The notes below the pieces were generated by a model. The model was not told the DNA's origin, made no database searches, and worked only from the letters and a program-made list of their open reading frames with translations. A program made the position numbers and the translations under genes. A stretch of 63,897 nt of DNA, filler included, from Rhizaria sp. SCN 62-66 (Eukaryota), in the NCBI GenBank assembly GCA_001724265.1. It is 3 parts of 3 records of this genome, joined end to end, with 100 filler letters (N's around TTAATTAATTAA, not from the genome) between each part and the next. Parts side by side here need not be neighbours in the genome. Positions count along the whole stretch, not along the records: positions 1 to 26,089 come from MEDY01000412.1; positions 26,190 to 51,720 come from MEDY01000413.1; positions 51,821 to 63,897 come from MEDY01000538.1. One strand, written 5' to 3'. Shown piece by piece: positions 2-59,455 of the stretch. Every line of letters begins with the position of its first letter. The first letter of the stretch is position 1.

Positions 2-2419
2 GCTGATCACGTACGGGTCGTTGGTGGACACACGTGAAGCTTCGTTAGCAAACACAACACGCATGTTGGAAATAGTGCAGTAGATCATCGATTCAACAGC
101 CGTGTACTGAGTGACAGTGATTGTAATCTTGTTGCTTGCCGCAGAAATCGTGCATTCGCCGCTTGTGCGTGTGGCTGATGAAAAGTCAAATGAAGTCAGA
201 GCCGTGGTTAGAACAAGCTGTGAGCCAATGGAAAGTATTTCGCCAGCTTCAATTTTAAATGTGCCGGCAAACGTAGAGACAACCTGTGTGAAGTCACCTG
301 ATACAGGTGTCAACACAAGAGAGCTTGGAGTGTAACTATATGTCATCGAGTGCATCTTGGCTATGATAGGCGCCGCCAGCGATGTCGCCACAGTCACAGG
401 GTTGCCCGTGGTAGCTTGTGAAGTCAGATGAATCATGAGACAATAGCCGGGAATCGACGGATTCGCAATACCTAGCGGGGAAAGTACATTAGTAATGTTT
501 AGCTGGACCTTGCCTGAGCCAAGAGTGGCACTGGCGGAGCAGGAAAACACGAAGCGCGTTGTGGCAGCCGAAACTGTTGAACAGCCCGAGTTAGTAATTG
601 CAGAGCTTGCTGAGAAGAGTACGGGCGAGCTGTCGCAGAAGCGAATCGTACCCCGCACGCCGTCAACAATGCTAAAAAGAGACTCGACGCCAGCACTATA
701 CCAAGTAGTAAATGCGGTAGTGAGTATATGATTTGAGCCCGATGTGCCGGTACGGAGAAACCCCTCAACAGTGAGCTCCAGCTGTGCAGGCGTATAGATA
801 CGCGTGTTACCAGCGTAGTTACCACATCCGTAGAAATGCCATTCTTGATAGCCATTATAGGTATAGTAAGCCCCTGGCCTTGCAGAAACTGATAGTGTAG
901 TTGCAGCATAAGCAGTCAGTGTACTGACTGCCGTCGCAAGAAAGCGCAGGGTGATGGGGTTTGCGGCGTTATGATTGAATATATGGTAGCCAAGATTTAC
1001 GCGGAATACATATTCAGTGTTAGATCGTTTCTGTCGAAGTGCTATAGAATAAATAGTTGCTTCGTTTGCCTCCGTAAAAGGAGCAGAGAATGGGATTAAG
1101 GTATGGCCAACAGCAATATAACTCAAATCCGTTACAATAGCTCCAAGGCCTGACGTAATATCAATCTCAATATCAACAATAGAAGGACTAAATACAGAGC
1201 CATAGTAAGAACTATAACTTTCTTTCGTTGCAGAAAGTGTGCGAGCGATAAAATTGCGGAAGCTCAATTCTAGAATAAAAGATGTCTCTGTTCCTGATCG
1301 CGGTGACGCAAGGCTACTTAGAGAAACACTGACCACGTAGGGATCAAACTGCGTCAGGCCACTTGGGGACATCACATATCCTCCTATGGAGTACGTTGGC
1401 ACGGTTGATGAGCCATGATGGGCGACGGTTCGACCGTCGGAGTTACAACCAGGTTTGCGCAGCGTCGCTGATGACGAATAGCCAGGAAGCATTGGGATCC
1501 ACATTTTTTCCGTATGATACTGTGTTGCGGGGCACGTTGAGAACAGAAACCCTGCAGCGTACTCACCGTAACACATATATCCGTCACACTCCTCCTCCTT
1601 ATACACTTTTGCACTCTGGCAAGGGGAATCTATAACATAAGCAGTTATAGGTTCAATATAACTATAAGAATACATCCCCACATACACCAAAAAGCTCGCA
1701 CACGTGGTACATGCCACCGATATTTGATTTTCTGCGAGATAATATATATAATCATAAATCGTTGTCTTGCCAGCTAGCATGAACTCAATCGAGACGATAA
1801 CGCGCACGCCCGTGACATAGCCCCCTTTAGCTGCTTGAGAACTAAAGCTTTGAAGCTGCTTCTGACGTTGCTGCTGTTGCATGTGTAGTGCTGTAGAAGT
1901 ATATCCCAACTCTGTGGCGGTGCGACTGCTGCGATTGTTGACACCTCCCTTGGCGCGCAACTAGTTTCGGTCGGCACGCTTTGAGTGCGAGGAGGCGGCG
2001 TGCTGAGCACGCTGAGCGATCGCTTGCTCAGGAGTATCTAGATACTCACCTGGTTTATAGTTGAACAACATGCTGTCGAACAATTTATCCGTTGCATATG
2101 CAAGTCGACGTTGCAGGTTTGGCGGCAAGCGCGCCGGGTTCTCGTAAAGAATTTCGCGCAGTGTTAAGTTGCTCGTGAGCCTATCTACGAAACGCATGTA
2201 TGCCTCAGCGCGCTCCGTCGAGTCAATTCGACTCTGCACGGGACGCGGAAACGCAGCAAGAGGTGCCCCTTGCAAGTCATGAGGACTATCACTTCTGCGA
2301 GCGTTTGGTTGTGAGTCAACTGTTGTTGGGAAGAATTCCGATGTCGCGATTTTAGCGTTCACCAGAAGCAGGAGAGCGAGAGCGAACAATGCGGCCAGAG
2401 CGCCGGTGCGCACACCCAT
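2..2419 (-). CDS. Large secreted/surface protein, 3' end runs off the window; one in-frame TAG at 1961-1963
   Basis: Starts with signal-peptide-like MGVRTGALAALFALALLLLVNA. Hand translation shows the same frame stays open for 653 codons after the TAG (LRAKGG...FDPYVVSVSL...STNDPYVIS) to the window edge; the ORF track misses this part. Ser/Thr/Tyr/Cys-rich, extracellular-like composition. Confidence 0.75.
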
Positions 2420-3090
2420 TACGTCAAAACACTATTGTCAAGTTAATTAAGAAGGAAAACAATGTCCAGAGTTTAATGGGAGTGATTGGCTAAATGTGCA
2501 TCAGGTCAGAGACGGGACAGAAATGTTGATTTGAGACAAGGCAATGGAGGCGGTTGGCGAACGTGAAAAGCAAGTAACATGTTTGAAGAGATGAAGAAGA
2601 GAAACAGGTAATGTGAGGTGACAACATAATTTCTAACATAAATAACTTTTGTTAAGCATTAAAAAACACTGATAAGAATGGTTAAAAATTTGCCTATGAA
2701 AGCAAAATAGTGGGCTTGGATGCTCCGACCACGCTGCTCTGGTTGAGTGTGCAGCATAAGAAAATGAACATAATTTACAAGGCTTCTGTTCAGTTACAAG
2801 GAAAAGATAAGCAATAAAATTAGCGTGGTGAAATGAATAACATATTGGATATACAAATAGCCATGTGCTGATCTCTAAAAATGATTCTCCCCTTTCAATA
2901 CCAAGGAGCAGTGTAAGAAAAATAAAGTTGCACACAGCACGGGTGACATAGGAGAGTCGGCCCCGCTACTAATGAACATGTCCGGTCAGCGACCGCGAAA
3001 CCGCGCCCAAAAAATACGAACACGCACCTTCGCGCCCCTGCTCCTTTCCACCTTCTTCCTTCCTTGCGTCTCTCTTCCGTTCTCTCCCAG

Positions 3091-5950: not shown

Positions 5951-6013
5951 ATACTTTTCAGAAATCACCCGCTCATCAGCTTAAGCTTACTAAAAAAAGT
6001 ATGCTTCGACTGT

Positions 6014-6409
6014 TCAGAAAATATCCCCCGCCAACGCGACATCAGCACTTGCCTTGTCATTACCATTGCCCCTGTTAGCGCCCTCCTGCCCCTGTCCCTG
6101 CCCTTGGCCCTGCCCCTGCTGCTCGCTCTCTGGCTCGGCATCGGTGTGCGTCGCGGGCACGGTCACCACCGAGGCCCTAAACGACGGCGGCAGCGGCGGC
6201 GGCTGCGTCGTCGACACGCGCTTGCCCCCGCTGCCATCCGCAGCGGTGGCTGGAGCCGCGGCCGGAGCCGTGGCCGTGGCCGTGGCCGTGGCCGCGGTGA
6301 CCAGAGCGGCGAGCGCCTGCGGCGGCAGCGGCGGCGGGCCCGTCTTGGACTCGCGTCGACTCGCACTCACGCCCGCGCCTGCATCTGCAGTCGCAACGGA
6401 GCCGGGGGC

Positions 6410-6440
<31 letters not shown>

Positions 6441-9404
6441 GAGGCGGTGGCGCGTACGGACTCGTTGACGGACAAGCGCGCGGACCGCAGCGTGAGGTGT
6501 TGCGCCAGCTCGCTCATCATCGGCAGCGGCACGGTCACAGCCCCGGCCCCAGCCCCGGCTCCGGCTCCGGCGGCGGGGACGGGCGCGCCTGCGACGGCGA
6601 CGGCCGCATTGGTCGACAGACTGGCACCGCGCGCGCGCGCCGCAGCCGCCGCGTCGCCGGTGAGCGCGCTGTTGCTGTGCTTGAGCCTAAGCTTCGCGGC
6701 GGCGTCGGCGCGGTCGTCAAGCGCCCGGCGCGCCCGCTCGTGGTCGGCCGCCGCGGCGCGCAGTCCGACGCTGGCGCGGCGGTAGCACGCGGGACACAGG
6801 CACGCCGGCAGCGGGTCGGGCAGACTAACTCCGCCGCCGCCGCCGCCGCTGAGGCCGCCGCCGAGGCCGAGCTGCTGCTGGGGCTGGGCAGCCGCCGCCG
6901 CCGCGGTGGCCGCGGCCAGCACCGAGAAGGGGTTCCCGGCGGCAGAGCCGCTGCCGCTGCCTGCGGCGGTGCCGAGGACGCGGACGAGCTGCGCGAGCCC
7001 TGGCTGCGGCGAGAAGGCGAAGGCCGCGCCCGAGCCCAGACCCTGCGCGAGCACCGAGAGGCGCTGGAAGTGCTGCACGGCCGGCAGCGGCGACCACGCC
7101 GGGTCGGGCGCGGGCAGCCCCAGCAGGGCGGCCCACGCGGCCGGAGAGAGCGCGCCCGCGCCGGGGGTCGCGGGCAGCGCCAGCGCGGCGATGAACGCGG
7201 GCGCCGTCGACGCGGGGTCGCTCAGCACGAGCGCGTCGCCGCTGCTCGCAGTAAGCCCGCCGACGGCGCTCCAGCTGCCGCCGCTGCCGGCGGCGTCGTC
7301 GTCGCCCGCGGCGGCGCCCGGCGCGCTGTTGTTGCGGCGCATGGCGGCGGCGGCCTGCAGCATGGGCTCCATGCCCAGCGCGACGGCGCTGCACACGCCG
7401 CCGCCGCCGCTGCCGCAGTCGCGGCCGAGCGCGCGCAGCACGCCGCCCGCCACGACCGTGGGCTCCCCGGCCGTGGCGTCGGCGGCGACCTGGGCAACAG
7501 TGGCGTCGCCGTCGCCGCCGTCGGCCGCGCCGGGCGCAGGGCCGGGCCCGTTGTGGGCCGCGTCGAGCCCGCACGCGGCGGAGAAGGCGGCGGCCGCAAC
7601 GGCGAGCGCGGGCGGCGCGCCGCAGGCGCAGCCGTCGCAGAGCAGCGTGTCGCAACCGGCGCAGAAGCCCTGCGGCACGACGGGCAGCAGCACGCGTGGC
7701 GCGTCGGGCACGGGCGCGAAGGCGGGGGCCTCGGCGCCCGCGCTGGCGAGCGTCAGGCTCGCGCTGTGCGTCATCACGCCCGTCCCACCGAAGCCGCCGA
7801 CGCCGAAGCCGGCGGTGGAGGCGCCGACGGTGCCTCCGTGGGGCAGCGCGCGGAGAGAGCCCGAGAGCGGCGACGAGGGCACCGAGTGCGACACCACCAG
7901 CTCGCCGGCGGTACCCATGGAGGTACTCGTGAGTCCGCCGGCGCCGCCGCCGTGGGGGATGGGGACGCCCTGGACGAAGGGCAGGTAGAGCGGGCGCGCG
8001 CACCGGGAGCAGCCCAGCACTGGCGGCGCCGCGGCCGCCACGGGCGCGGGCGCGGGCACGAGTAGCGCGGCCGCTGCGGCGCCGCCCGCCGCGCCCGCGG
8101 CCGAGCCCACGACGCGGACGGAGCCGCCCGCGCCGGCGCCCGCGGGCGAGGGCGGCACGGTCAGCGGGCCGCGCAGCGTCGCGAAGACGCCCGGGCCCGC
8201 GCCGGCGCCCAGCTGCTGCTTTTGCGGCGATGGCGACGACAGCATCGCCGCGCTGCCGTGGCCGTGGCCGGCGGCGGAGGAGCCGTCGCGGCGCGCGGCC
8301 GCGGTGAGCGCGATGGCGGCCGCCTGCTGCGCCACCGAGGCCAGGAACGCGTTCGCGCCGACACCGCCAGCGCCAGCAGCGCCAGCGCCAGCAGAGCCCG
8401 TAGGGCCGCCAACGGCCGCGACGCTGCCTCTGGGCATCTTGCCGCCCGCGGCACCGCCCGCGGCCAGGACGGCGTTGAGAGGCCCCGCGGTGGCGAACTT
8501 GCCGGGGCCGCCCGCGAAGCTGCCGCGCGCGCCGGGGAGCGAGCCCACGAGCGCGGCCGCAGCGGGGTGCGGGTAGATGGGCTTCCCGTCCGCGCTGCCG
8601 CTCGTGGCGCTGCTGCTGGCGGGGGCGGCGGCGAGCGCCTGGGGCAGGAGCGTGACGAAGGGCATCGCGGCGGCGGCGGGCGGTGTGGCGGCGGCGACGG
8701 CGGCGAGGATGTCGCGCAGCCAAGCCGCCTTGGCCTTAGGCGAGTCGGCCGTGACGAGGAACGAGCCCTCGGGGTGCGAAACGAAGATGCGGTTGCGCAG
8801 CAGGCGCGCAGCGGGCGAGTCCTTGCGCACCGCGGCCAGCAGCCGCTGCGCGTACCAAACGAGCGCCTCGCGCAGCGGCGCAGCGGCCAACACGCCGGTC
8901 ACGCCCGCGGCGACCGCGCTCACGTCGGCAGAGGGGCCGCTCTTGCTTACGCTGGCGCTGGCACTGGTACTTGCGCCCGCCGCACCGTCGCCGTCCTTCT
9001 TGTCCCTCTGCTGCTGGAGCGCGGCGACGAGCTGCGCGCGCGCCCGCTCGTTGACGGCCAGCGCGGCGGCGGCGGCGGCGAGCGCGGCGACACCCCAGGG
9101 GTCGCGGTCGGGCACATCGTGCACCGTCATGCCCGCCAGCGGCAGCCGGTAGACCTCCTTCTTGCGGTAGCGCACCTTGTTCTCGAAGCAGTGCGTTAGT
9201 CCCGCGTGCGTGTTGTAGCTCTCCTTGTCGGCCGCGCCGCCGCTGCCGCTGCTCAGCGCGGCGGCGGCGTCGGGGCAGGCGGCGAGGAGCTGCTGCTGCA
9301 GCTGGGGCGCCACGGGCGGGGCCGCAAGCACGAACGGCGACAGGTCGCCGCACGTCGCGGCGCCCGCCAGCGCCGCCGTGGCCCCCGCGGAGGCAGTCAC
9401 CACT

Positions 9405-9435
<31 letters not shown>

Positions 9436-11490
9436 AGGCCGCGGGGTCCACGGGCTGGCCGCCCAGCGCCGCGGGCACGAGCGCGCGCTCTGCCTCGCCG
9501 TCCGCGCGGCCCGCGGCGGGCAGCGGCGCGCATGCGTGCACAAGCGGGTCCGTTGAGCCCGAGGGCAGCTTGGCCAGCAGCAGGCAGTCGGACAGCAGGA
9601 AGGCGTGCACGCGCACGGGCGCCTTGCCCGGCGCGGCCGTCGCGGCGGTGAAGGTCGTGCCCGCAGCAACCGCCAGCGCTGCCGCCGCCGCCGCCCCGCC
9701 GCCGCCGCCGCCGCCGTTGCTGCTGCCGGCACTGGCGCTAGAGAAGGCCGTGTTGGTCGACGTGGGCGACGCCGGCGAGCTCTCCCCGCCGCTGCCGCCG
9801 GCCTTGCTCTTGTCCTTCTTGCTGTTGCCACTCTTGGGCGTCCCCGGCACCGCGTTCGCGCCGCCACTGCCGCCGCTGCTACTGGGCGAGAGCGTGGCGT
9901 TGGCGGTGGCGCGCATGGCGGCGGCGAGCGCGCCGGGCGCCGTCATGACCTTGCCCTGGCGCGAGAGCACGAGCTCGCCCGCGCGGAAGACACGCTGCGC
10001 GGGCGTCACGAGGTCCTGGCCGGGCAGGATCGCGTCGGCGCGCAGCACCAGGTCGCGCTGCTCGCGCGCGCGGCCTGCGTCGTTGACCGTGGCGATCACG
10101 GCCAGCAGCGTGCTCAGCCCGGCCTGCAGCACTGAGTGGTCCGCCTTGTACGCCTCCAGCGCGCTCAGGCGGACGTCATTGCCGCGCGAGCCGGGCTTGG
10201 CACCAGCCGGGGGCTTGGAGCGAGGCTTGCGGGACCTAGCCTTAGCGTTATATTTGTTGTTGTTGCTGTTGTTGTGCTGGGGCGAGGTGGGGGGCGACGC
10301 CGGAGTGATGGTGAGAGTGGTCATCAGCTTCGCACCGACACTGTTACTGCTGCCGCTGCCGCTGCTGTCGCCACCGCTGGCGCGCTCGCTGGCGCCGCCG
10401 GCGCTGTGCTCGGGGTCGCTCTCGACGGCCCCGTCGTCGGCCTCGTCGTTCTCCCCGCCGTCACTACCGCCGTACTCGCCGTCGACGTCGCTCTCGTCGT
10501 CGTCGTCGTGAGAGGGGAAGTCGGCGTCGTCGTCGGAGCTTGCGCCCGCCGTCTCGTCCGCGGGCACCGCCGCGGTCGCCGCGGGTCCGTCGTGCAGCGC
10601 GTCGGCGCCGGCGGGCAGAGCGCGCGCCGAGAAGAGGCGCTGCTCCTCCTCCACGGCGGCCTCGCTCGGCGAGTGCTTGAGGATCTGCTCGATGAGCATC
10701 TGGTAGCGCGGCAGGCGCTGGATCGGCATGATAAGCAGAGAGCTCAGGTGCCGGCTCCGCGTCGCCTGGAACGCCACGAACGCGCTGCTCTTGGCCAGAC
10801 TGCGGGGAACGAACACAGAGAAGGGGTGTGAACAAAGAAACAAAGTTAGAATTGAAGAATAGAACTTTGTTTGAAGTATTTTAGTTGATTTAAATACATT
10901 GCAACACAATAAGCTATCATTTTAGAGTAAGTTCATGCCATATACACAAAGTTATTCTGGCGTACCGGTCGAGGAGCACAATGCCCTCCTTCTCGCGCAT
11001 CGACGCGAAGAGCCGGTAGACGCGAAAGTAGGGCGTAAACTCGGACATGAGGCGCCCGATCGACGGCGGCTGGATCCGCAGCAGCAGCGCGCGCACCGCC
11101 CGCACCGACGGCCGCCCGCGGGCCACCGCCGCGCGCGCGGCCGCAAGCTCCTCCGCCGTCGCCGTCGCAGTCGTCGTTGCCACCGCAGTCGGATCGCCGC
11201 TTTCAGCGGCAGCGGCCGCGGCAGTGTGGCCGGGGAGGGCGACGTCGTTGGGGTCGTTCTGCTGCAGCAGCGCGACCGCAGCGGCCCACGCCTGGTGGCG
11301 CGCCTGCATGCGCGCAAGCCGCGACAGCCGTCTGTCGAGCCGCGCGGCCCAGGCCCCCAGCACTTCCTCGAGGTCGGTGAGGAAGCGGACCGTCACGGCC
11401 AGCACCTGCGCCATGCATGTGCTCACCATCGCCACGTCGCGGAACGCGAAGCCGCGCTTGTCTTCGTGGACAAACGGCACCGCGGACGGC

Positions 11491-11533
<43 letters not shown>

Positions 11534-13217
11534 GCGTGGGGCGCGGGCCGTGGTTCTGGCGCGGCAGCGGCACGGGCGGCGCGCCCACCTCGTCGTACTC
11601 GCTGTAGCTGGCGATGCTGGCGCAGTATGAGCGCTCCGAGGTGAGCAGCTCGCGCACCAAGAACGCGCGCTGGCGCAGAGCCGATAGCCGAGCCGGCTGC
11701 AGCAGCGAGGCCACCACCTGGTCCGCGGTCACCGCGGTCAGCGGGCTCGGCACCGCAGTCGCAGCCGCCGTGCTGGCGGCGGCAGCGGCAGCGGCGGCGG
11801 CGGACTTGTTGCTGACCGGGGTGCTGGGGGTGTAGCTGGCGGGCAGCGGCGGGGGGCCGGCCGCGGGCTTCGACACAGCGCCTGCAGGAGCATTGCTATT
11901 AGGTGTGCTGTTGCTGCTGTTGGACGCGAACGAGGCTGCGCGCGTCTGCCTGCCGTCGCCGCCACTGTCACTGGTCGCCGCCGCGGCTGTGGCGGCCGAG
12001 GTCGCCGCCGAGGCTGCCGCGAGGTGCTCGAAGGCCCTCGCCGAGGCCGCGATGCCCTGCCCGCCGCGCTGCGCTGAGATCGCCAGTACCGACGCCCGCT
12101 GCGCGCGCTTCGCGGGCGCCGGCGCCGGAGCCGCAAAGGCCGCCGCCAGCGCCGCGGCGGATGGCAGCGGCGGCGGCAGCGCGGCGCCAGAGGCGGGCGG
12201 CAGAGGCGGCGGGCCTGAGGCTGAGGTTGAGACGAAGCCCGAGCCTGAGCTCGCAGCGGCGGCGGTGGCGGCGGCGAGCGCGGCGGGCGGCAGCGGCGGG
12301 GGCCCGATAAGAGACGGCCGTTGCGAATGCGATTGGTTGGAGACGGCGTAGCTGGCGGGCAAGGGCGGGGGCACCGCGACGCTGCCAGCGCGGGCGCGGG
12401 CCTCGCTACTGTCGGCGTCAGAAACAACGGCTGCATTGGCGCTGGCGCTGGCGCTGGCGAGCGACTCGTCCTCGTCCTCCTCGCGGAAAGCGGGCAGAGC
12501 CGGCGGCAGCCGCACGGCGGATACCACGAACGCGTCCTCTCCGTCCTCGTCCTCGGCCCGGGGGGCCTGGGGAGCCTCACCGCCGGGGAAAGAGTAGCCC
12601 GCGGGCAGCGGCGGGGGGCCGCCCCCGCCGCTGACGCTCAGGCGGGCAGCAGGGGCCGCTGCAGCAGGGGCCGCTGCGGCCGCGACCTCGGGCTCGGCGT
12701 CGAGCAGGTTGTCGACGTCGAACTGGACTGCAGACGCGGCCGCAGCGGCGGCGACGTTGCCGTTGTTGTTGCTGGCGTCGTTGCCTAAGACGGTCTGGGT
12801 AATGGTGTTGTTGTTTGAGAAGTCGCCGCTGTCGTCGCTGCTGTCGAGGTACATCTCACCACTCGCGTTCGCGCTCGCATTCACCGCAGTTGCAGAGCCG
12901 GAGCCGTCAGCGTCAGCGTCAGCTGCGCTCGCGCACGCGTCGACGCCGCTGTCAGCGTTCTCAGCGCCGCCAGCGTCAGCGCCGTCCGCGTCGTTGCGCG
13001 GGGTTGGGGGCGCGGGGGCCACGACGGGCGCCGCTAGCAGCGCCGCCGCCGCCGCCGCGCCCGAGCCGCCGCTGCCGCCGCCGCCACCGCCGCTGCCGCC
13101 GCCGCTCTGCGTGTGCGCGGGGGTGGGGGCGGGGGACGGCAGCGCGAAGAGCGCCGCGCTGCCAGTGTTGTGCGCACTGTGACCGCCGGCCTTCTTGCCC
13201 TTTTTGGCGCTGGCGGT

Positions 13218-13249
<32 letters not shown>

Positions 13250-14183
13250 GCGTGGGCGCGGGCGTCGCGGCCGTGGCGGCGTGCTGGTTGAAGAGAGACG
13301 CCAGCGCCATGACCTTGCCCTTGCTCCCGCCCGGCGTCGCAGCAGCAGCGCCAGCGCCGGCGGAGCTCGTGCTGCTGGCCGCTGTGTTGCTGCCGTTGTT
13401 GCCCTGCGCGGTGTTGTTGTGCGTGTTGTGCTTGTAAGGCGTGGTCGCGCTGCGCGCGCGCGTCGACGCAGGGTTGCTCGACGGCGGCGACGCCAACATC
13501 AGCGCCGGCGGGGCCAGCGCGGCCGACAGCGCCAGACTGCCCGCCCCGGGACTCGCACCCGCGGCCGCCACACTGTTGTTGTTGTTGTGGTTGCCGCTGA
13601 GGGGCATAGAGAGGGAGCCTGAGCGGGAGCGCGAGGCTGAGCGGGACTGCGCGCGCACGGTCGCCGCCAGCGACGGCGCGACAGTGTAGCCCGAGCTCGA
13701 GCTTGAAGTCGCCATGGTGGCGTTGTTGTTGCTGTTGCTGTGGTGCGGGAGCGGCAGCGGCAGCGCGCCGGCGGGCAGCAGGTCGGCCAGGTCCGGCACA
13801 GTCACCCTGATGTCGCTGCCGTCGCCGTCTTGGTTGTCCTCGTCGTCGGTGTCTGTGTCTGTGACGACAACGTCTTCGTTGAGCGCGCCTGTGTGCACGT
13901 GCACGTGGCCGTCGCCGTCGCCGAACGAGCGCGAGTGCGCCAGCGAGTGGCAGACCTCGGCTTCATCATCGTCGTCGCCATTGCGGACATTTTGGCTGTG
14001 TGCGAGGTGTTTGTTGGCCTGGGCCTCGGCTTCGGCCTGGGCCTCGGCTTCGAAGTCGGGCAGGCTAGGCGCGGGCGCCAGCGCGATGCTGGCGCAGACG
14101 CTGCCGCGCGCAGACATCGACGCCACGGAGGGCTCCGCGCTGGACTGGAGCTCGGCGACCTCGGGCGACGGCGAGTCCGACAT
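6014..14183 (-). CDS. FGD-like Rho guanine-nucleotide exchange factor (DH-PH-FYVE-like), about 2667 aa
   Basis: Exons 14183-10966 and 10799-6014 (intron GTACGC...CCGCAG). DH motifs RELLTSERSY, IGRLMSEFTPYFRVYRLFA and LSSLLIMPIQRLPRYQMLIEQILKHS. PH motifs VHAFLLSDCLLLAK and SFLVTADSPKAKAAWLRDI. Cys pairs CSRC, CAGCDTLLCDGC, CLCPACY. Many PPPLP motifs. TGA stop. Confidence 0.88.
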
Positions 14184-26821: not shown

Positions 26822-29434
26822 TCACTGCTGTTGCTGCGGCGCATTGGGATTGGGCGCCGCCGGCGCGGCCGGCTTGATCCAGTTGTCGAACCTGGTGGTG
26901 ACCTCGACGGGCCGGCGGGTGCGCTCGACCTCGGCCGCGCGCTCGCGGCGCCGCTGCGCCTCGGCCGCGGCCACGGCCCGACGCTATTCGTGTGCCCGCG
27001 CCAGCGCCCGCTCCGCGCTGCCACGGGAGAGGTGCGCATCAGAGTCGTCAGCGTTGTCGTTCCCATCGGTCTGGGGCTGTTGGGGGATCTCGGCGCCGTC
27101 GGCTACGCTATTGCTCTTGCTGTTGTTGTTGCTGTTGTTGCTGTTCCGCTTAGAGCCCGGGGCAGCGCCAGCGTTAGCGAAGATGCCGCTGCCGTTGCTA
27201 GTCACGCGGCTCTTCTCCAGCAGTAGCTTCACCTGTTGCCGCATCGACAGCGCACGCTTGACGGGCTTGCCCCGGCCGCTCTGAGGCTGAGACTGCGACT
27301 GCGCATTCGTGTCGTCGTCGTCGTTGTTGCCGTTGCAGTTTTTGTCTTTGTTCTGGATATTGTTCGTGCTGCGCTGCGCGGTCGCTGTGGCGGCCCAACC
27401 CGTACGCGCCCGGTCATGCTCGGCGCCCTGCCGCGCCTCTTTGACGCCGCGCACATCGCCCAGGTGTGGGAACGCGCCCCCCGCCCCCTTACTATGGGCT
27501 GCGCGGCGCACGGCGCGCGTCTGCTGCAGCAGCTCCGGAGAGAAGGGCAGGTCATAGCCGCCCAGGGCGGGGTATTCCGGGCTCACCACGGGATGGTAGA
27601 CCCACTCGGTGCCGAACGTCGACGCGCTCGGCTTATCCTCCTCCTCATCATCATCATTACCGTCGCCGTCGCCGTTGTTAGCATCGTCAGGCTTTTGTTG
27701 TTGCTCCTGCGCTTGCTTTTGCTGAGAACTCTGATCATGTTGATTTTCAGCATCGTTGTCATTGTTCTCAGAAGCCGCAGCACCGTTTTCGCTGTTGCTG
27801 TTCTGGTCCACATGGCCGTTATCGGCGGCCTGTTGCGCCAGCGCGACCCGGTTGTCGGCCTCCCGGCGCCTCTGCGCGGCCCGCTCCAGCTCGGCCCGTA
27901 CGGCCGCCAGCGCGGCCTCCACCTCGGCCTCGCTCATCGGGTCCTCGAACGGGCTGGGGAAGGCGGCCGCGGGCGGCGCCGCGACCTCGACGTTGCTGAC
28001 GTAGGACGCCCACGCGCGGTCGATGTGGCGCGCGTAGCGCGGCAGCGTCTCGGCGGGCAGCGGCGTCGCGGCCGTCAGCGGCGCCGGCGGCGCGACGGAC
28101 CGCGGCCGACTGTTGTACCGCATCGCCAGCGCGCGCTGATGCTCGGGCCCCCACCGCTTCCGCGCCTTGGCGTGCGCGTGACTCGGGGGGTGCGCGGTGC
28201 TGGTGCTGCTGTTGTAGCTGTACGACGAGGTGGTTGTCGGGCGGCGTGAGGCCGAGAACGGGGTCGGTGGGGGCAGAACGGGGTAGTACACGACTTGCTG
28301 CTGCTGCTGCTGTTGTTGTTGCTCTTGAAGCAGTTGTTGTTCGCGCTGTTGTTGTTGCATCGCACGGTCGCGTTGCTGAGAAGCGCGGAATGCGGGGTGG
28401 TAAACGACCGCGACAGTTGTCGTATTGTTGTTGTTGTTATTGTTGTTGTTATTGTTATTGATACTCTCGACTAGCGCGTTGCTGTTAGGATCATTACTGT
28501 TATTGTTGCTGTTGTCAAAGTCACCATTGTTGTAGTTGTTGCTATGATCATTATCGATGTTGTTGTTAAAGTTAGCGTGGGAGCCGTAGCTCCGGAAGCT
28601 GTTGGTGCTGCTGCTTGCAAGCAGCATGCCGCTAGAGCTCGTGGGGCTTGCTTGAGGCGACTGCTGCTGCTGCTGCTGCTGCTGCTGCTTCTGCATCGTA
28701 ATCAGCTGCCTTTCACTGCCACTGCGGCTGTAATCGCCATTACTCCTCGGTGAGCCGTCGTTGGCCTTGTTGCTGCTGCTGTTGCCGAGCTTCGCGGTGC
28801 GGCGGCGGTCAATTTGCGCGATGCTGCGCCTGAGCGCGTCTGGGTCCGGCACAAGCGCGGGCGGCAGCAGCCCCGCCCGGGCGACGGCCGTCAGCCCGCC
28901 CGGCAGCAGCGTCGCCTTGCTCGTCGAGGCCAGCGACGACGCCGTGGCCAGCGGCGAGAGCAGGTCGGGCGCGCCCGCGCTGCCCAGCGGGCCTGGCGGG
29001 AAGTAGTTGGTCAGCGTCGTGCTGGCCAGCAGCGCCGAGTCGCGCGCGCCCGCCGACAGGGCCAGCGAGGAGCGCAGCGTGCGCTGCGGCACCGAGCGGT
29101 CGCGAAACGGCGTGCGCGCAGAGAACTCGCTGCTGCTATTAATACCATTGCTGCTGGAGCTAGGGTTGAAGCGCGCGGGGGACGGCAGAGAGACTGGGGC
29201 GGCGGCAGCGGCGGCGGCGGTGTAAGGCCGGGCGGATTGAGAGCCTGCAGCAGCAACGTTGCGGTGTGCTGCTGGAGAAGGCGCGGGGACAGCGACAGAG
29301 CTCGAGCTTGTCGTAGAGCGGCGGAGAGGCGTGGCGGCTGAGGCTGTCGGGAGCGCGGCGAGGTCGCGGGCAGGCGGGAAGTCTGAGGCAAAGGGGGCGC
29401 GGAGCTGCCGATACTGGGCCAGCCCGTCAGACAT
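26822..29434 (-). CDS. Hypothetical Q/N-rich, partly coiled-coil protein; in-frame TAG at 26984-26986, probable true stop TGA at 26822-26824
   Basis: 816-codon ORF, then TAG, then 53 more strongly GC3-biased codons (RRAVAAAEAQRRRERAAEVERTRRPVEVTTRFDNWIKP...QQQQ). Composition turns AT-rich only after the TGA. Confidence 0.75.
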
Positions 29435-49247: not shown

Positions 49248-49551
49248 CGCTCGAAAGACAGTCTGCAATCACGAAAGAAGAGAGTCTCGAGATGTGTCTG
49301 GCTGCGGTGGCGAGGGACGGGGGGGGGGTCACAAAAGGTCAGGAGGGAAAGGACTAACGTGAGATCAAACTAACGTAGACGTGGCTTATTTTAAGCAAGA
49401 ATACTTTCACTACTGTTAAAAACATATCCTACAAATTACACTTCAACCACACGTCGAAATTGCCAACAGCGCAATGCATTCTCTTAAAGGCCGCCCACTC
49501 TCACTTCGTGACCGTCGCTCTCTGCCTGCTCTTGCTCCCCAACCGCCCCAG

Positions 49552-51102
49552 ATGTCGTTCGTTCCGCCCCCGACGCACGTGTTGCACCCGTCGTACTCGC
49601 ACCCGCTGCTCAAGCAGTGGGGCTCCGACTGCGCGGTGCGCCCCGAGCACCTCCAGTTCCCCATCTTCGTCACCGATGAGATCCTCGATTCGCCCGCCCC
49701 GACTGACAACACCGCGACAGCCAAGGCTGCCGCGAAGACTGTCGCGAACACGTGCGCCGGGATTGCGGCCAGCGAGGTCTACACGGCCGTGGTGGGCGCC
49801 GACGAGGGCGACTCGCCCGGCAAGACTGAAATCAAGAGTCTCCCCGGTACGTCTCTAGCTCAAGAAACGTAACAGCACACGTGCTTTGACAAGATTCATT
49901 GTGTCTCGACTTGTGCGATGCCTTGTTGATAACGCTCAGGGACAACGAAACTCGAGAGATAGGTTTACATACCCACTTCAATTAAACATTGCGAACTTGT
50001 ATATCAAGAGGGCTTCGTCCTATCGACTTATATCCTCTACAATCCTCCCGTTCATATGACAATCGCTAAATTTGCTTCCTTTTACTCCTTTGTGTCGTTT
50101 TGCTTTCTCTCTTCTATCTCGGTCCCAGGCCAGTACCGCTGGGCCGTCTCGCGCCTGCCCGAGCTGCTGGACCCCCTTGTGGCGCTGGGACTGCGCTCCA
50201 TCATCCTCTTCGGCGTGCTCACCGACGCTAGCAAGAAGACGGCCTGCGGCAGCTGCGGCTTCGCGGCCGACGCCCCGGTGCCTCGCGCGCTCGCTCTCGT
50301 GCGCCGCCGCTACCCGGCGCTCTTCGTCGCCGTTGACGTCTGTCTCTGCGCGTACACCTCCCACGGCCACTGCGGCATCCTCCAGGCAAACGACAACAAC
50401 GACAAGCCCGCTGACAACAACGCCGAGACCTCCGATAACAGCGCCGCCGTCGACCGCTTCGCGCCCGCGTTTGCGATCGACAACCAGGCCAGCATCGCAC
50501 AGCTGGCGCGCATGTCCGTGGCCTTCGCGCTGGCGGGCGCGCAGATGATCAGCCCTTCGGACATGATGGACGGCCGCGTCGGCGCCATCAAGGCCGCACT
50601 CGCCAGCACCTACACCAACGGCACTCAGGGCAACGGAGCTGCCGCCGCGAACCCGTCTCTGGGCTCGCGCGTGCCGGTGATGTCATACTCGGCCAAGTTT
50701 GCGTCGTGCTTCTACGGGCCCTTCCGCGACGCCGCGGGCTCCGGCGCCAAGTTCGGAGACCGCGGCGGCTACCAGCTGCCACCGTTCTCTCGCGGGCTCG
50801 CGCTGCGGGCCATCGACCGCGACCTGGACGAGGGCGGCGACTTTATCATGGTCAAGCCCGGCATGCCGTACCTGGACATCTTGCGGGACTGCGCGGACCG
50901 CTGCGGCGCGCGCGGCGTGCCCGTGGCCGTTTACCACGTGTCCGGCGAGTACGCCATGCTCTGGCACGGCGCTAAGGCCGGCGCGTTCGGGCTGCGCGAG
51001 GCCGTCATGGAGGCCATGGGCGGCTTCCGCAGGGCCGGTGCCACCGTGATCCTGACCTACTACGCGCCGCTCGTGCTTCAGGCCCTCAGTGAGATGAAGT
51101 GA
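49552..51102 (+). CDS. ALAD: Delta-aminolevulinic acid dehydratase (porphobilinogen synthase), Zn-binding eukaryotic type, about 422 aa
   Basis: Exons 49552-49846 and 50129-51102. Motifs [72 protein letters not shown] stop. Confidence 0.97.
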
Positions 51103-51820: not shown

Positions 51821-51821
51821 G

Positions 51822-52223
51822 CTGATCACCAGTCAGGGCAGCACGAGCACGACGCTTAGCAGCGCGGTTCACACCAACGTTGGCATCAGCGACGACGGCT
51901 GTGGGGAGAGCTGCAGTGATGTGCCCATGGGCACTGGTACCGGCATGATGCTGGCTGACGCTACCACCGACACCGACACCGACCCGAACACTGACACGGG
52001 TACCAACACAGAAGACGGCGGTAGTGCCAGTGACAAGAGCAGCGACAACCACGCCGACATCATCGCTGGCGTCGTCGTCGGCGTCGGCGGCTTCCTCGTC
52101 ATCCTCGCCGTTGTGCTTATTGCGTGGTATAAGAAGCTCTGGTGCTTCTCTCAAAAGGGCGCTGCTAGCAAGAGCGCCGATATCGAGATGACTGGCAATG
52201 GCACCGGTAACTACGACGTTTAA
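51822..52223 (+). CDS. C-terminal fragment of a type I membrane protein
   Basis: Frame open from the contig edge; T/D-rich stalk, TM IIAGVVVGVGGFLVILAVVLIAWY, KK stop-transfer, short tail, TAA stop. Confidence 0.8.
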   Translation: MITSQGSTSTTLSSAVHTNVGISDDGCGESCSDVPMGTGTGMMLADATTDTDTDPNTDTGTNTEDGGSASDKSSDNHADIIAGVVVGVGGFLVILAVVLIAWYKKLWCFSQKGAASKSADIEMTGNGTGNYDV

Positions 52224-53839
52224 GATGGCAGTTTCCACCATCTTTGCGATGCCGAGTCCTTTTCATCGGCAATAATATTTTTTTTCAATCTGAACATTTA
52301 TTCAAAACCTTATCAGTCTGAATGATATTATCTTATATTTCTGCATGGTGACAGTAGCTGTAAGCGAGTGGTAAACGACGTGTTGTGATATCACTCGCAC
52401 ACCTGTCATCGAATCATTTTTATTTTTAATATGTTTGAATTATCTGTTTGTTGATGAACGGTTGACGTTTGTCACCAAACTTTTATTCACGTTCAAATGT
52501 ATGATGTCCAGTGCTTACATCATATTCCTCTGTTTCCCGTTTTCATGCTCACCTTCCTCTCGTATCCGGTGAGAAAGGCGCGTTTCCTCCGCACAATCGT
52601 CGTATTTTCGTGTGATATCGCATCGTTCTACTCTCGCTTTTGCGTGCGATAGTGCGATTCGGACACGATAATCAGCGATATTGTGTTGTGACTTTTTCTT
52701 TATAGCTGTATTTGTATTCTTGATGTTTCGCTGACATGAATGCGCGGTTTAACTGCCAATCGATGTTAGCACGCCTGTATGATCATATTTCTGTTGTTGT
52801 TTTGTTTATTCTGCATAACTTTTTGCTTATATGAAGCGAGATTTAGGTTTAGTTCATCTTAGTACCTGTGAGTACTGCTGACGGAGCTGTTCCGAATCCG
52901 CGTCATTCTTGTTGATATAATGTTGCTGATTTGCGAGTATGACAATCATTTATGGGTTGTATCGTTGTTATATGTGTTTATCACCCTCTTGTTGGATCAA
53001 ATCCACTGTATATGCCTTTTTGCATCGATCATCATGCAATCCACTGCGAGCATCACATATGCTTCTCCGTGGATATCGTAATTGCGGTGCCTACAAAACG
53101 CAGTTCGGAGAACTTCATGTACAACGATAACAACAACTATGACACAAAAATGTAACTCACTGTTACGTTCCAGTTAATCATTCTCGCTGAGCACACCAAT
53201 TTTTGTCAAAATCTGTCTACGAGAGCCTATAATCCATCGCAGTTATTGATCAATTTGATCATAATCTTCGTATATTATTTGGCTTTCTCACGGAGAAGTT
53301 GCAGGATGTTTTCTCCCTGCAACTTGCCCAATTTTTGCATCCATCATCGCGCGACGCGCGATGCTTCCTTCGTCATGGTATATGACCGACAAAATACACT
53401 GAAACTGTATTTGTTTCTCCTATCAAAATAGTATGTTATCCCCAACGACATATTGAACACGATGCTATTCGCGTGACACGTATACCGCGTGCGTTCAGAG
53501 CGACTATTCGTATGACGTTGTAATAGTTGCGTTAGTGGCTGAAACGAACTTCAGCTTCTCGCTGGATAGTAAGAAAGTAACATTAGTCGATGTACGTCAC
53601 TGGGGTAGAATAATTCAATTAAATATATTGTAAAACGTAAATCACAGGCCGAAGTACACATAAATCACCCCTTCTCGGACTGCAACTCACAAGTCTCTAT
53701 ACAAGCCCAGCGAAAGGAAAGAAAAAAAAAAAACATATCCGAAACATTTCCGAATAAGTAATACGTGCACTCCTCCTACCAAACGTTTAAGGTTTAATCA
53801 CATAGTTACGACAAAGCACAGCATTGAAGACAAGAAATC

Positions 53840-56800
53840 TCACTTCTCCTACTCTTCTTCTTCACCACCAGCATCACCAGCAGCACCAGCACTCGCAGCA
53901 GCAGTCGCAGTATCACCTGCGTGCGCACCCAAACCCTGCTGCTTACTCTGTTGTTTCGCGGCCTTAAGTGTGCGCTTCTTCTTCTCCTTGTTGTACCGTT
54001 TCTTCTGCGCGCCAGTCATTTGACTGATATCCATCGTCATCAGCACTTCGATGTCAATATCACCGCTCTCTTCACCATTTGCAGCGTCAGCAGTAGTAGC
54101 AGCAGCGGCGTTAGAGTGGATAGCAGCGCTTGCGTTCGCGCAGTTGTTGCTCCTGGCCTGAGAGTGAGCGTCAGCAACAGCAGCAGCAACAACAGTCGGT
54201 AAGGCTGCCTCATCATCCAGACTCTCGCCAGGCGGGAGGATCACGCCTCCGGGCCCCACAGTCACCTCGACGGCTGTGGCCGCGGCGTCGCCCGACGTGG
54301 CGTTATGATGCTTGGCAAATCCCTTAAGCCCAATCACCATGAAGACGCGGAGCACGGCCGCCGTTGCGAAAAGGCCCACAAACGAGGGGAACAAGTGCGC
54401 GCCGGCGTCGCACTTAGGACCCGTGGTCGTGGGGCCGAAGTTCACCCAGTCGTACCCTTGCTCCAGTGCTAGACGCACCGAGCGGTAGAGCATGATGAAG
54501 TACGCCTTGGCTTTGCGGCCAGCGACGTGGTCAAGCCCCTGGATGTCCGCAGTCATGATGCGGGTCTTGGGGAACTTAAAGATGACAGAGGACCCGATGG
54601 CCTTGCCGTCCAGCTTCAGGATCAAGAAGCTGCGGTTGCGCGGGTCCATGGCGGAAATCGACCGGAAAAGCGACTCTTGCGGCTTGTACAGCACTGGGTC
54701 GTCGCCTTGCTCCTGGCGGTGTGCCGCGATGGCCTCCCACAGCTGCGTAAAGTCCTTTGCCCAGCCGGTATAGGTGGACTCGAGCCGCTGCGGGACGGTC
54801 GTGAGCGTGTGGATGGCCTCGATGCCGACGGCGGGGCCGCGAGTGCCGGGCACGGACGCGGCGGCGGTGGCCGCAACAGTTGCGGCGGAGGCCTGGTGAT
54901 GCGCCAATAACACAGCACGCTTCTTGCCGCTCTTAGCGTTGACAGAGCTCGAGGGCGCATTCATGCTGTTGTTGTCGTTGTTATCAGCGGTGTACGTGGG
55001 GAGATACGGGTTATGTCCGTGGTAAAACAAGTCTGGATGGCTGAACACGCAGTCCGGCACAGTGAATCCATCGCCCTTGGCGCTGACTTGCGCGTTCGCA
55101 GCCTTGGCAGCGCTGTTGGTGCTGGTGCTCACCGTCGTTGTCGTGCTTGTCACGGCCTCGGAGGCGATCAGGCGGCCCAAGCCGTCGCGGACCTCAATGT
55201 TAAGCCGCCCAGATTCGAACTCATCATTTTCTTCGTTAGCAGTGTTACTCCTCTCGTCATGAAGCTGCTGATAAGCGTTGGCGCTAGCGCTTGATGTCTT
55301 TACACCAGAGAATTTGGCTGCACTGTTCCTCCTCTTCTTGCCCTTGCCCTTCGTGGTCGTATCGTCGCCGTTGGGAATGACGGGGAAATACCCGTTGTTC
55401 TGCGCGACAATCGTCTCGGCAGCGTGGATAGCCTGGGTGCTCACACTGACACCGGTCGCAGCAACGCTGACGCGGTTGCTCTGGGTGTTGGCGTTGCTCG
55501 TGATGTGGTCAAGCAAGTACCGCTGTTCCTCTTCCTCGTACCCGTGCCACGGGTTCGCTTCAGAGACGTAGTGGATACTGCCGCCCATCTCGTAAAACGG
55601 AGTGTCGTAGTCGCGTCGGTTCCCCTTCTTGAGCCCCTTGGACACAAACTCGGCCCACGTGCGGCCGCGGTGGCGGCGCAGGTCCACAATCGCCGTCGCG
55701 GGCAGCGGCGCGTTGATGAAGCCGCTGAGCTCGGGCTGCAGCGCCTCGCTGAGAGGCTCCGTCTTGAGAGCGCCGAGGATTAGCAGCATAATGCGCTTAT
55801 GAACAGGGAGGCTGGTGTTAAACTCGGCCACGGCCCGCAGCGCCATCGCCTGCTTTGCGACAGTATCCGAAGAGTAGGGTGCGTTGTATACGCAGGCGTC
55901 GCCGCCGTTCGCGGTGGCGCGGGGGCCCGGGACGACGGGCGCAGGCGCGGCGGCGGCGACCGCGGCGGCGGCGGCGGCGGCGGCAGCCGCGGCGGCCTTC
56001 TTGGCCTTCTTGGCTGCGCTCGCAGTCATGCCGGCGGTGGACGCAAGCAGAGCCTGCTGCACCGCGATCGCCTCGGCGGCGGCGGCCTCGGCGGCTTGGC
56101 GGGCCGCGGCGGCGGCGGCCTCGACGGCGGGGTCAACGGCGACGGGGACAGCGACGACGGGGGGCGGCACGTACTGCGTCAAAAAGACGCCGTTGGCGAA
56201 GGGCCAGTGGAAACCGACGAGGGCGAAACGGACGACGAGCATCTTGAACAGGGAGCGCGCACCGCACAAGGGACTGAGGAACGTGGCGAACTTCGTGAGG
56301 TCGAGCGAGTGCAGCACTGTGAGATAGACCAGCGCGTGCGAGGACGGGCGCGGGGGGAACGCACGAGGCGTCGACGCCAACGCAACATTGGCGTACTCAC
56401 AGTCGCTGCCACTCTCACCTGTGCTGGTATTACAACTGTTATTGTCATTATGCTGACCGTCAAGGCTCGGGGGCTCGTACGTGCCAGTGTTCGCGTTGTT
56501 GTTCCGAGAATTAGCGCGCGCCTGAGCGTCGGCCGCCAGGTCATACACGTGCAACACGACGCCTTCGACGTTGTGGACGCCGGCGCGCGAGTACGCCCGC
56601 ATCATCTCGATCGCGCCGGCGCCGTCCCAGGCGCCGCAGTGGCCGCCGTGGCCGCCGCAGCGCAGGCACGCGCCGGCGTCGGTGTACTGCGGCGCGGGGG
56701 CGGGGGCGGTCGCGGCGTTGGTCTGCGCGTGGCAGACGCAGGTGCCGAGGCCGAGCGCAGTGTCGAGCGAGGCGGCCCAGTGCGCCTTTTGCAGCGGCGT

Positions 56801-59455
56801 GAGCGCAGCGACGTCGAGGATCTCGACGCCCATGCCGCTGGGAAGCGATTTGAGAGCGAATGAGGCCATCGCGACATGGGAGAAGAGGGTAAGGGCGCCG
56901 ATGGCGAAGTGCGTGATCATGAGGCACTCGAGCAGGGAAATCGCGGTGCCGGGGGGGTGGTCAAAGCGGAGGTAGACGGACGCGACTTCAGCGACAAAGG
57001 CGAGGATCATGTTGCCCCACGAGACGGCGTAGTAGGCCAGGATGACGCAGTCGAGCAGCATGCCGGGTGGCAGGCGGGCGCAGGTGAGCGCCAGCAGAGC
57101 CGTGGTGATGGCCAAGGATCCGACGGCGGGGCCCAGGTGGAAAACTGAGGCCGGGACTGCGTAGTCGGATAGAGCGACGACGGCCACGGCGAAGACGCCG
57201 ACGAAGAGCAGGATAAACGAGACGATCATGAGGGTGATGTCGGCGGTCCCCGAGCCGCCCTGCCAGTGCACGCGGGTGCCATAACGCAGCGACAGGGCCT
57301 GGGTGAGAATCAAGAGAAGCATTAGCATGACAGTCATGCCGCGCATCGTCTTGGTCGACATCCAGTTGAACGGCTTGGAGCGGTGTAAGGGGGGACTTAC
57401 ATCCTTGTCATTGTTATTGTTGTTGTAGCTCTCGACTAAGGGGGTGCTGAGGCCGAGAGTGGCCGAGAGGAAAGATGTGACTGTGCTCGTAGAAGGAGGC
57501 AGGGTACTTACAATGTCGCACGAGGATGTAAGCGTGTTCGTGCGCTTGCTAGTCGTCGCTGTGAGTGTCGCGAGCGTATCAGCAATATGGCCAGAAACAC
57601 AGTTATAACTGTCGGTACCCATGACCATGGTTGACTCACTGGCACTGTTTGAGCACGGAGCAGTGACAACTAAAACACTGTAGTCCTCGTCAGCGTCAGT
57701 GCTACTCTTCTCGTTGTTGTTGTTGTTGTTGTTGTTGTTGCTATTGTTGTTGATGCTGTTGTTAGGAAGAGTGAAGTGGCAAACCATGTGGCTCGTGCCA
57801 GTAATGGGGTACTTAGAGTCCTCACTAGCAGCAACGTACTTAGACTGAACACCAGACAAGTACTGGTTCAGCTCAGCGTCAGTCAAAAAGACACTAAACA
57901 GAGCCTCATCGCCGTGGCCGTTGTTGTTCAGCGCAGCAGTGATGTTGCCGCAAGAATTGAACATCGCAGCATTGCTGCTGCTAAACAGCACGTTTCGACT
58001 CACAGCGGTAGCAATGCCAGAGCTAGTGACGGTGGTCAGTCCGCCGGTGTTACCGTTAGTAAAGGACACATCACCGAGAGACAGCACCGTGCCGATAGCC
58101 AGGATGAAGCAGAAGACGATGCCGAGCACCTGCCCCGCGAAATGCAGCACCAGCAGCGGCTGCGGCGGCGCCAGCAAAGCTTCGTCGTCCTCAGCCTTGG
58201 CGGCCGCGGCAGCAGCCTCGGCCTTCGCCGCGGCCGCAGCGGCCGCAGCAGCGGTGCTGTTGCTGACGGGGGAGTTGGCGTCAGACTCAGAATCTGACAC
58301 GAGCAGCAGCGGCGCATTCAAGCTGTTGTTGGCCGCGGCCTTAGCGGCGTTGGGGTTCACATTAGTAGCACGCGCACTCCCACTTGCGGTCGCGGCCGCG
58401 GTGTCGCCGATGCTGGCGGGAGACAGAGGGAAGAAGCCCGCCGCCCCGTCGCCCGCGGACGCGCCCGTCGACTGCGGGGGCGACACGACGGGCGACTTGG
58501 CGGTGCGGGCCTGTAGGGACGGCGACAGTCGCGGCGACGCCAGACCAGCCGCCGCCGCGGTGGTCGTGGCGCTTGTCACACTGGCCAGCGCCGCCGAGCC
58601 CGCCGCGGCCGCCGTCGCCTGGCGGTGCGCGGCAGCGAGCGTCTGCCGGCGCTGGGCGCGGTAGAAGAGGAACAGCCCGATGAGGCTGTTTGCAACGAGC
58701 AGCACGGAGATGATGATCATCATGATCGGCGCGAGCAAGCGTGGGGTGACGCCGCTGGTGAGGTGGTTGATGATGAACAGCACGGCGTAGGTAACCAGAA
58801 GCACGCTGAGCGCAAGTGTGCACGCCGAGGACGTGAACAGTGCGGCGGGCGGCGGTGTTATGGTGACACGGTCCTCGCGGGAAAAGCCCTGGGAGAGAAT
58901 GGATGTGTCAGGGAGCTCGCGCAAAGAACCGCTGGTGCCGTTCGCGTCCGCAGCAGAGCGGCCGCCGGCGTCTGCATCGGCCTCTGCGGCGTAGATCGAG
59001 GGCGCGACAAACTTAGGCGTGCGCTCAGTGGCCCACGACTTGGCTTGGGTGAGGAGCTACAGCAAACCAGCGCTGGCGGTGCCAGGGGCAGGCTTGGGAG
59101 GGAGGGAAAAAGGGCAGACGGGGACGGCGTGGGGGAATAAAGACCCGCCGGCAACGGCGCTAATGTTCGCATCGGTTGGCTTATCCGTGGGCTTCCCCAA
59201 GGCCGCTGCGGTTGAGGCGGCGACTGAGAGGGGAGCGATGTGGATTGCCGCCCCCTCTGGAGCTGTTGTGACAGCGAGGGCGTTCGGCCTCGATCCTGCC
59301 TTGCCCGCTTTAACGGGTTTCTCAGCGGGAGTAGCAGTCGATGTGGAGGGTGTAGTAGAAACGGGCTGTGCTGGTACTTGCGGCTGAGATGCAGAGGCAG
59401 GGTCGGGGGCAACGGGAGCCGGCTCCGCACCCGTCGTTGCGGCGCCAGGCATCAT
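53840..59455 (-). CDS. Multi-pass membrane protein fused to a FemAB-like/GNAT transferase domain; in-frame TAGs at 59057 and 53849
   Basis: ORFs 59057-59494 and 53849-58924 share a frame separated by one TAG. About 8 hydrophobic segments, then PLPATAIVDL...TWAEFV..GLKKGNRR and FLILKLDGKAIG...YFIMLYRSVRLALEQGYDWVNFGPTTTGPK..AGA. Ends EEEE-TAG-EK-TGA. Start position is uncertain. Confidence 0.75.

Follow-up and report, generated by a model that had tools for sequence, protein, structure and literature searches.

In-frame TAG codons in a nuclear window of Rhizaria sp. SCN 62-66 fit tolerated early stops of the standard code at least as well as translation of UAG

To our knowledge, nuclear genetic codes that split UAG from UAA are confined to a few lineages, and the described cases are all mature ones with frequent use of UAG. 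Theories of codon reassignment postulate an intermediate, ambiguous stage, and in one ciliate UAA is said to encode lysine and UAG glutamate (PMC10553269). In exLh (Rhizaria sp.), UAG encodes leucine: those parts of the published account that deal with this codon report 384 in-frame UAGs, spread over 71 genes and for the most part aligned with conserved leucines, and a set of terminators made up of 56 UAA, 15 UGA and no UAG (Panek et al. 2017, PMC5304391). The same portions describe a UAG-only stop-to-sense nuclear code in Iotanema spirale, where UAG specifies glutamine, and attribute to UAG stop-to-sense codes changes of eRF1 in its GTS, NIKS or YxCxxxF elements (PMC5304391). In phyllopharyngean ciliates UAG is reassigned to leucine or glutamine, according to the relevant sections of McGowan et al. 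(2024, PMC11687900). We analysed a stretch of 63,897 bases from Rhizaria sp. SCN 62-66 (assembly GCA_001724265.1), called the window below, for which an initial annotation had proposed that TAG is read as an amino acid. We lean, with somewhat better than even confidence, towards a standard code in which TAG is a terminator and the early TAGs are tolerated or are ordinary stops; taken alone, the window is explained by early stops in dispensable gene ends no less well than by translation of TAG.

The window consists of three contigs, at 1-26089, 26190-51720 and 51821-63897, with runs of N between them. The four TAGs of the initial annotation lie on the minus strand in the contexts it had given, DRN-TAG-LRAK at 1961, RAHE-TAG-RRAV at 26984, AGLL-TAG-LLTQ at 59057 and EEEE-TAG-EK-TGA at 53849, and its statement that each contig holds one gene with TAG was borne out: these are G1, the low-complexity gene G7 and, for the last two sites, the membrane/GNAT gene G15. 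That all four sit within coding-like frames held, by codon scores, for 26984 and 59057; at 1961 the codon model gave no signal, and 53849 has the look of a terminator. As in exLh and Iotanema, as far as the portions of their description cited above go, in-frame TAG occurs here in nuclear genes, and genes end in TAA or TGA. Unlike exLh, about 18 genes contain 2-3 TAGs, none at a conserved position and both of the solid ones near a gene end, and UAG is at least a hundred times commoner in the exLh genes covered by those portions than TAG is here. The likeness to the phyllopharyngean ciliates is that UAG would be uncoupled from UAA, which is kept as a stop; the ciliate variants, as presented in the sections cited, have widespread UAG usage and identified suppressor transfer RNAs (tRNAs), unlike the window, which in turn differs from these ciliates by its GC-rich exons, introns of 151-282 nucleotides (nt) and long contigs. 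As in the ambiguous codes of Blastocrithidia, Condylostoma, karyorelict ciliates and Amoebophrya, TAG could here either stop (53849) or be read (26984, 59057), but the in-frame stops of those organisms are, in the excerpts of the literature used here, frequent and found in conserved genes, and the window shows neither. Functional readthrough extensions and ordinary stop-gain or stop-shift variation are both known at gene ends, and the window resembles them in having a coding stretch past a stop and early stops at dispensable termini. The main texts of the literature on metagenome-assembled genomes of activated-sludge eukaryotes yielded no code variant.

Coding signal was scored across the window with a codon-usage model in which nine long exon segments (11,058 codons) were set against the trinucleotide frequencies of twelve spacers; all tested flanks lay outside the training set. 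On the two strands together, 292 stops (97 TAG, 149 TGA and 46 TAA) were tested, each with at least 40 stop-free codons on either side. When 40 codons were scored, the frame of the stop was the best of six on both flanks in only two cases out of 292, TAG 26984 and TAG 59057. Coding signal on both flanks was found for none of the 195 TAA and TGA, in agreement with the earlier claim that no internal TAA or TGA interrupts a gene. At window sizes of 20-30 codons TAG 59057 still passed and TAG 26984 failed. Two further TAGs were flagged at these sizes, 22683 on the plus strand and 46823 on the minus strand, and were rejected as antisense shadows of real genes (sense CTA). At short windows the test is thus prone to false positives that favour TAG, since an antisense TAG is a sense CTA. 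In-frame TAG is rare: there are 2-3 cases, while the nine training segments by themselves comprise at least 11,058 codons.

A coding signature that crosses TAG at 26984 and 59057, and crosses no TAA or TGA (2 of 292 stops, both TAG), would be expected if TAG were a sense codon genome-wide, read by a tRNA with the anticodon CUA, with only TAA and TGA left as stops and usage still very low after a recent reassignment. G7 would then end at TGA 26822 and G15 at TGA 53840. We consider this explanation unlikely. TAG is rare and is absent from conserved genes and positions, whereas the known cases, in the portions of the source consulted, use it often (PMC5304391). The genes for ALAD, mitochondrial L24, the mitochondrial carrier, the CAP-Gly/LRR protein and the RMP-domain protein contain no TAG, and the initial remark that no TAG occupies a conserved position stands, the segment around 59057 being itself absent from orthologues. 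Nor does the window, over its 63,897 bases, contain a tRNA gene, a gene for eRF1 or any Rfam match.

TAG 26984 (26984..26986, minus strand, with C at position +4) is codon 817 of the 870 codons of G7, and the sequence on either side of it scores as coding. Counted from its first ATG, the G7 frame up to the TAG comprises 816 codons (26987..29434, minus strand), with a G+C fraction at third codon positions (GC3) of 0.79 and no match to a Pfam family. Protein word searches around this TAG and with the N-terminus of G15 scored nothing; since they missed even the genes used as queries, they are no evidence that homologues of G7 are lacking. The TAG is followed by 53 coding-like codons (26825..26983), in which the G+C content (GC) by codon position is 0.79/0.60/0.92, and then by a TGA (26822..26824) at a composition break, where the coding-like sequence of G7 ends. 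The frame score of these 53 codons is +47.4, the next best of the six frames reaching +31.6; the 53 codons downstream of TGA 26822 have a GC of 0.33 and score -92.6. The frame-0 score of G7 thus remains positive through the TAG up to TGA 26822 and then collapses. At 40 codons, and at no shorter window, the site comes out as the best of six, with a narrow margin downstream (37.9 versus 32.2). A gene on the opposite strand was considered for the GC-rich stretch after the TAG and rejected: the plus-strand open reading frame (ORF) at 26709-27284 crosses the G7 coding sequence and reaches the AT-rich spacer, which is how an antisense shadow behaves.

In the Drosophila literature, the classic mark of functional readthrough is coding sequence that continues in frame from one stop to the next. 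TAG might accordingly still be a stop here, but a leaky, ambiguous or programmed one, with a 53-residue extension of G7 and an N-terminally extended isoform of G15 as its products. The extension past 26984 has the expected form (+47.4 and a GC3 of 0.92, against scores of -10 to -93 after other gene ends), and the TAGs are placed where partial termination would be least harmful. No stable RNA structure was detected, however, in the 103 nt from each internal TAG (z = -1.3, 0.5 and -0.16, with 200 shuffles each), there are three sites only, and TAG 59057 lies near an N-terminus, unlike programmed arrangements; we know of no programmed readthrough in such a position. We hold readthrough to be rather improbable.

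TAG 59057 (59057..59059, minus strand, C at +4) is codon 133 of the 1871 codons of G15, and its frame outscored the other five on both flanks whichever window size was used, from 20 to 40 codons. It closes an open frame of 132 codons that starts with ATG-ATG (59060..59455, minus strand); these codons score +52.4, with the next best frame at +17.4, and the 133 codons after the TAG score +65.4. The main frame of G15 follows (53852..59056, minus strand), with 1735 codons that specify a multi-pass membrane region and a C-terminal GNAT-like domain. The first in-frame ATG after the TAG is codon 245 (58721..58723), within the first membrane helix. A profile search of the whole library returned the homologues P0124-P0134, 11 with an expectation value of 0.001 or better. 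P0124 and P0125, the two best, run colinear with all of G15 but begin near its residue 225, from which we conclude that the segment around TAG 59057 is a lineage-specific N-terminal extension; the N-terminal alignment of these two proteins to G15 is weak (4.2 bits). Counted per 50 codons from the N-terminus, the GC3 of G15 is 0.50, 0.68, 0.72 and 0.72, and then 0.88; eight other genes begin with a GC3 of 0.64-0.94. For G15 a lead in the Atlas pointed to Acetyltransf_6/FemAB-like proteins, and the Pfam match of P0124 is weak, below the cut-off.

The family to which G15 belongs is uncharacterised and eukaryote-like, with a GNAT domain placed after several membrane helices and homologues of 482-1106 residues. 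Insertions rich in Ala, Asn and Ser inflate G15 to about 1870 codons.

The second TAG of G15, at 53849 (53849..53851, minus strand), stands at the 3' composition break of the gene in the context GAG TAG GAG AAG TGA, with G at +4 and the TGA (53840..53842) two codons further on. Most simply, it is the ordinary terminator of G15. It is uninformative between the readings, because it lies at the composition break and two codons ahead of a TGA: a former terminator with a short extension to the next stop might equally be expected after a recent reassignment. The 15 other gene ends listed in the initial annotation were confirmed as TAA or TGA with non-coding composition downstream. Eight are TAA (5464, 25954, 26365, 31891, 34133, 52221, 60094 and 63345) and seven are TGA (6014, 15107, 24703, 40101, 47034, 47497 and 51100). 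Another candidate end, TAA 49870, was rejected as it falls within the intron of the ALAD gene. After all 17 TAA or TGA ends (the 15 together with TGA 26822 and TGA 53840), the next 53 codons score between -10 and -93 and have a GC of 0.33-0.59, which is not the case after TAG 26984. This difference speaks for a sense TAG, as does the count of no TAG among the 15 unambiguous terminators.

The terminator tally is only weakly unusual, however, because TAG makes up no more than 16% of the stop trinucleotides in the training exons (sense strand, all offsets) and 19% in the spacers. By composition, the chance of no TAG among 15 ends is p ~0.04-0.07, and with TAG 53849 counted as a normal stop, one TAG in 17 ends is unremarkable. 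The restriction of internal stops to TAG is likewise expected under the standard code, since with the codons used here TAG is the outcome of 1298 of the 1909 nonsense paths that take one step (68%), or of 73% when transitions only are considered. Two early stops would then both be TAG with P 0.46, and three with P 0.31. Both the TAG-only pattern and the tally are therefore weak evidence for a sense TAG. The positions also tell against it: 26984 and 59057 both lie within 7.1% of a gene end, for which P is ~0.02 if a sense codon is placed at random.

The base at +4 is a purine in 13 of the 17 accepted terminators, and TAG 53849 has G there. At the internal TAGs 1961, 26984 and 59057 it is T, C and C, in each case a pyrimidine, which fits leaky termination better than it fits either full reassignment or random nonsense mutations. 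C at +4 is the leakiest stop context.

Could the TAGs be removed from the messenger RNA (mRNA)? Introns were inferred where a frame change inside a gene coincides with an AT-rich valley bounded by GT...AG. Ten were obtained in this way from the sequence alone (10800-10965, 31534-31755, 37100-37335, 37988-38138, 44905-45108, 45309-45520, 45717-45974, 49847-50128, 60415-60602 and 60939-61125); they are 151-282 nt long with a GC of 0.31-0.43. Their 5' splice sites are unusually uniform, reading GTACG in eight of the ten, GTATGT once and GTGCGT once. Since these introns are AT-rich inside exons with a GC3 of 0.8-0.9, GC-rich third positions are tied to coding sequence and not to regional composition. 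The splice-site-like motif GT[AG][CTA]G[TCA] does not occur in 58600-59600, around TAG 59057, nor, within 26700-27200, upstream of TGA 26822, and both regions are GC-rich (0.66-0.79, versus 0.31-0.43 in the introns). The missing motif counts in favour of TAG as a sense codon. As to editing, we know of no U-to-C editing of nuclear mRNAs in protists. It is thus very improbable that TAGs 26984 and 59057 are spliced out or edited; a frame-preserving candidate intron of the form GT...AG, 159 nt long, was found for TAG 1961 only.

TAG 1961 (1961..1963, minus strand, T at +4) separates a 152-codon ORF (P0122; 1964..2419, minus strand), which has an N-terminal signal-peptide-like segment, from a Ser/Thr-rich open frame of at least 653 codons (2..1960, minus strand), which runs off the contig and has no signal peptide of its own. 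The GC3 of G1 is ~0.45 and the codon model gave no signal anywhere in it; the model is silent at this TAG because the composition of G1 is atypical. The candidate intron (1891..2049, minus strand) would remove the TAG while preserving the frame. It reads GTGAGT...CTACAG; its length is near-typical and it ends in CAG, whereas its GTGAGT start and a GC as high as 0.57 would be unusual for an intron of this genome.

A scan of metagenome contigs with G1 found one independent contig, L001, of 1783 nt. It has the same base as the window at 1771 of 1779 aligned positions and a TAG at the matching place. The 152-residue ORF P0122, which ends at TAG 1961, is recorded exactly from 5 contigs, and P0123, a 78-residue ORF of the same cluster, ends at this TAG too. 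TAG 1961 is thus no assembly accident, as L001, P0122 and P0123 reproduce it, and its presence in L001 and in ORFs from at least 6 contigs would also suit a sense TAG.

For the two other internal sites, a base-call or assembly error would be supported by the exact look-ups, which gave no independent copy of 26984 or 59057: among G7 ending at the TAG, G7 with Q, E, L, Y, K, W or S in its place and ATG-start variants of G7 and G15, 17 of 18 queries were absent from the collection, the look-ups covering ORFs called from ATG starts and not from GTG or TTG. The agreement of L001 with the window at TAG 1961 argues the other way, as does the Atlas, which holds a G15 ORF beginning at the first start codon past TAG 59057, possibly from the same sample. 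Two substitution errors that both create in-frame stops would be very unlikely, and we regard this explanation as hardly credible.

Two side observations concern the same locus. The gene at 2-2431 has a GC3 of 0.45, against 0.7-0.9 in its neighbours. L001 matches the window without a difference for about 1680 nt; 8 differences follow in its last 80 nt (L001 1688-1766), most of which change the amino acid, and this pattern suggests a variable or multi-copy family of surface proteins.

Under the standard code, which we favour, TAG 53849 would be the normal stop of G15, and TAG 26984 an early stop, fixed or segregating, through which the last 53 codons of a fast-evolving, low-complexity protein would be lost, the tail still carrying its coding signature. 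TAG 59057 would truncate a poorly constrained, lineage-specific extension, and the conserved body of G15 would be made from a start past it, for instance ATG 58723. TAG 1961 would end the ORF of a small secreted protein, or sit in an atypical intron. The bases, frames and positions of the TAGs and the coding signatures beside them are plain in the window; the flanking coding signal we infer to be a remnant and not a sign of present translation. In favour of this reading, the solid TAGs sit where truncation is least harmful (codons 817 of 870 and 133 of 1871), and the conserved genes are free of TAG, which is very rare altogether.

Several observations weigh against the standard code. Two early stops with undecayed coding signal are uncommon for about 18 genes, and they have no counterpart among the TAA and TGA (0 of 195). 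The GC3 of 0.92 past TAG 26984 exceeds the average of G7, without any drift towards the AT-rich composition of non-coding sequence. Between TAG 59057 and ATG 58723 there are 111 coding-like codons and no ATG, and under scanning an upstream ORF of 132 codons should hamper initiation further down. The only signal peptide of G1 lies upstream of TAG 1961. The 15 gene ends include no clean TAG terminator. Finally, in the training counts a purine is the first base of about 67% of codons, which gives P ~0.04 for three pyrimidines at +4.

We weighed the rate of tolerated stop gain and stop shift per gene against a low prior for code change outside ciliates, and marked the latter down for low usage and for sites close to gene ends. 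That TAG is translated, as a reassigned or as a leaky codon, came out as the less probable outcome, if one to be taken seriously. Under our own rough likelihoods the estimates ranged from about one-twentieth to a little under one half. UAG reassignment is a reasonable lead, for which the support amounts to no more than about one chance in three. A tentative form of it, which we rather doubt, places this uncultured, GC-rich, non-ciliate eukaryote of wastewater reactors at an early or ambiguous stage in the loss of UAG as a stop, with a few TAGs in weak contexts near gene ends being translated. TAA and TGA would then carry out nearly all termination, and translation would run on through the former terminator TAG 53849 to the TGA. 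The organism would then offer a natural view of the intermediate that theories of reassignment call for.

If TAG is translated, this would be a UAG-only reassignment, a kind already known, possibly caught early or while still ambiguous. With only a handful of UAGs translated, an ambiguous intermediate could be tested directly against codon capture, and the order suppressor tRNA first against eRF1 change first. If instead the TAGs are tolerated early stops, the window is a caution: in genomes with GC-rich third positions about two thirds of nonsense mutations yield TAG, so that a TAG-only pattern is no sign of code change. Either outcome bears on gene calling for an organism that recurs in wastewater and bioreactor metagenomes over a decade.

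The GC of the window varies between 0.43 and 0.78, its long frames have a GC3 of 0.7-0.9, and AT-rich spacers lie between them. Recognisable genes encode ALAD, mitochondrial L24, a mitochondrial carrier, a CAP-Gly/LRR protein, a RhoGEF protein and an RMP-domain protein; together with the intron-split, GC-rich exons, they identify the window as part of a eukaryotic nuclear genome. Scans of prokaryote-genome contigs with G15 and with the CAP-Gly/LRR gene, of viral contigs with the 2985-codon gene and of metagenome contigs with G15 gave no match. A 5.9-kb stretch recurs in runs dated 2015 to 2025 from bioreactors, wastewater and activated sludge; part of it is present in 10 of the 12 matches listed, and half or more in 4, and the matches come from 5 studies. 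Apart from the window's own protein, the top match of ALAD is 67% identical and comes from a metagenome, and the top named matches reach 53-54%. The ALAD protein P0001 is on record from 6 contigs, the longest of 174 kb.

The ALAD gene (49420-51102) has an upstream exon and a 282-nt intron, and the recorded 348-residue ORF P0001 is for this reason an N-terminally truncated, prokaryote-style call. The frames at 10917-14288 and 6014-10921 seem to form one gene of about 2700 codons (6014-14288), joined across the intron at 10800-10965; Pfam matches are limited to a partial RhoGEF domain, which lies just past the junction. At 40070-40115 a perfect tandem repeat of 15 nt, in 3.1 copies, spans the TGA stop of the CAP-Gly/LRR gene, and the last four codons of that gene with their stop, VTLL-TGA, are present three times in frame.

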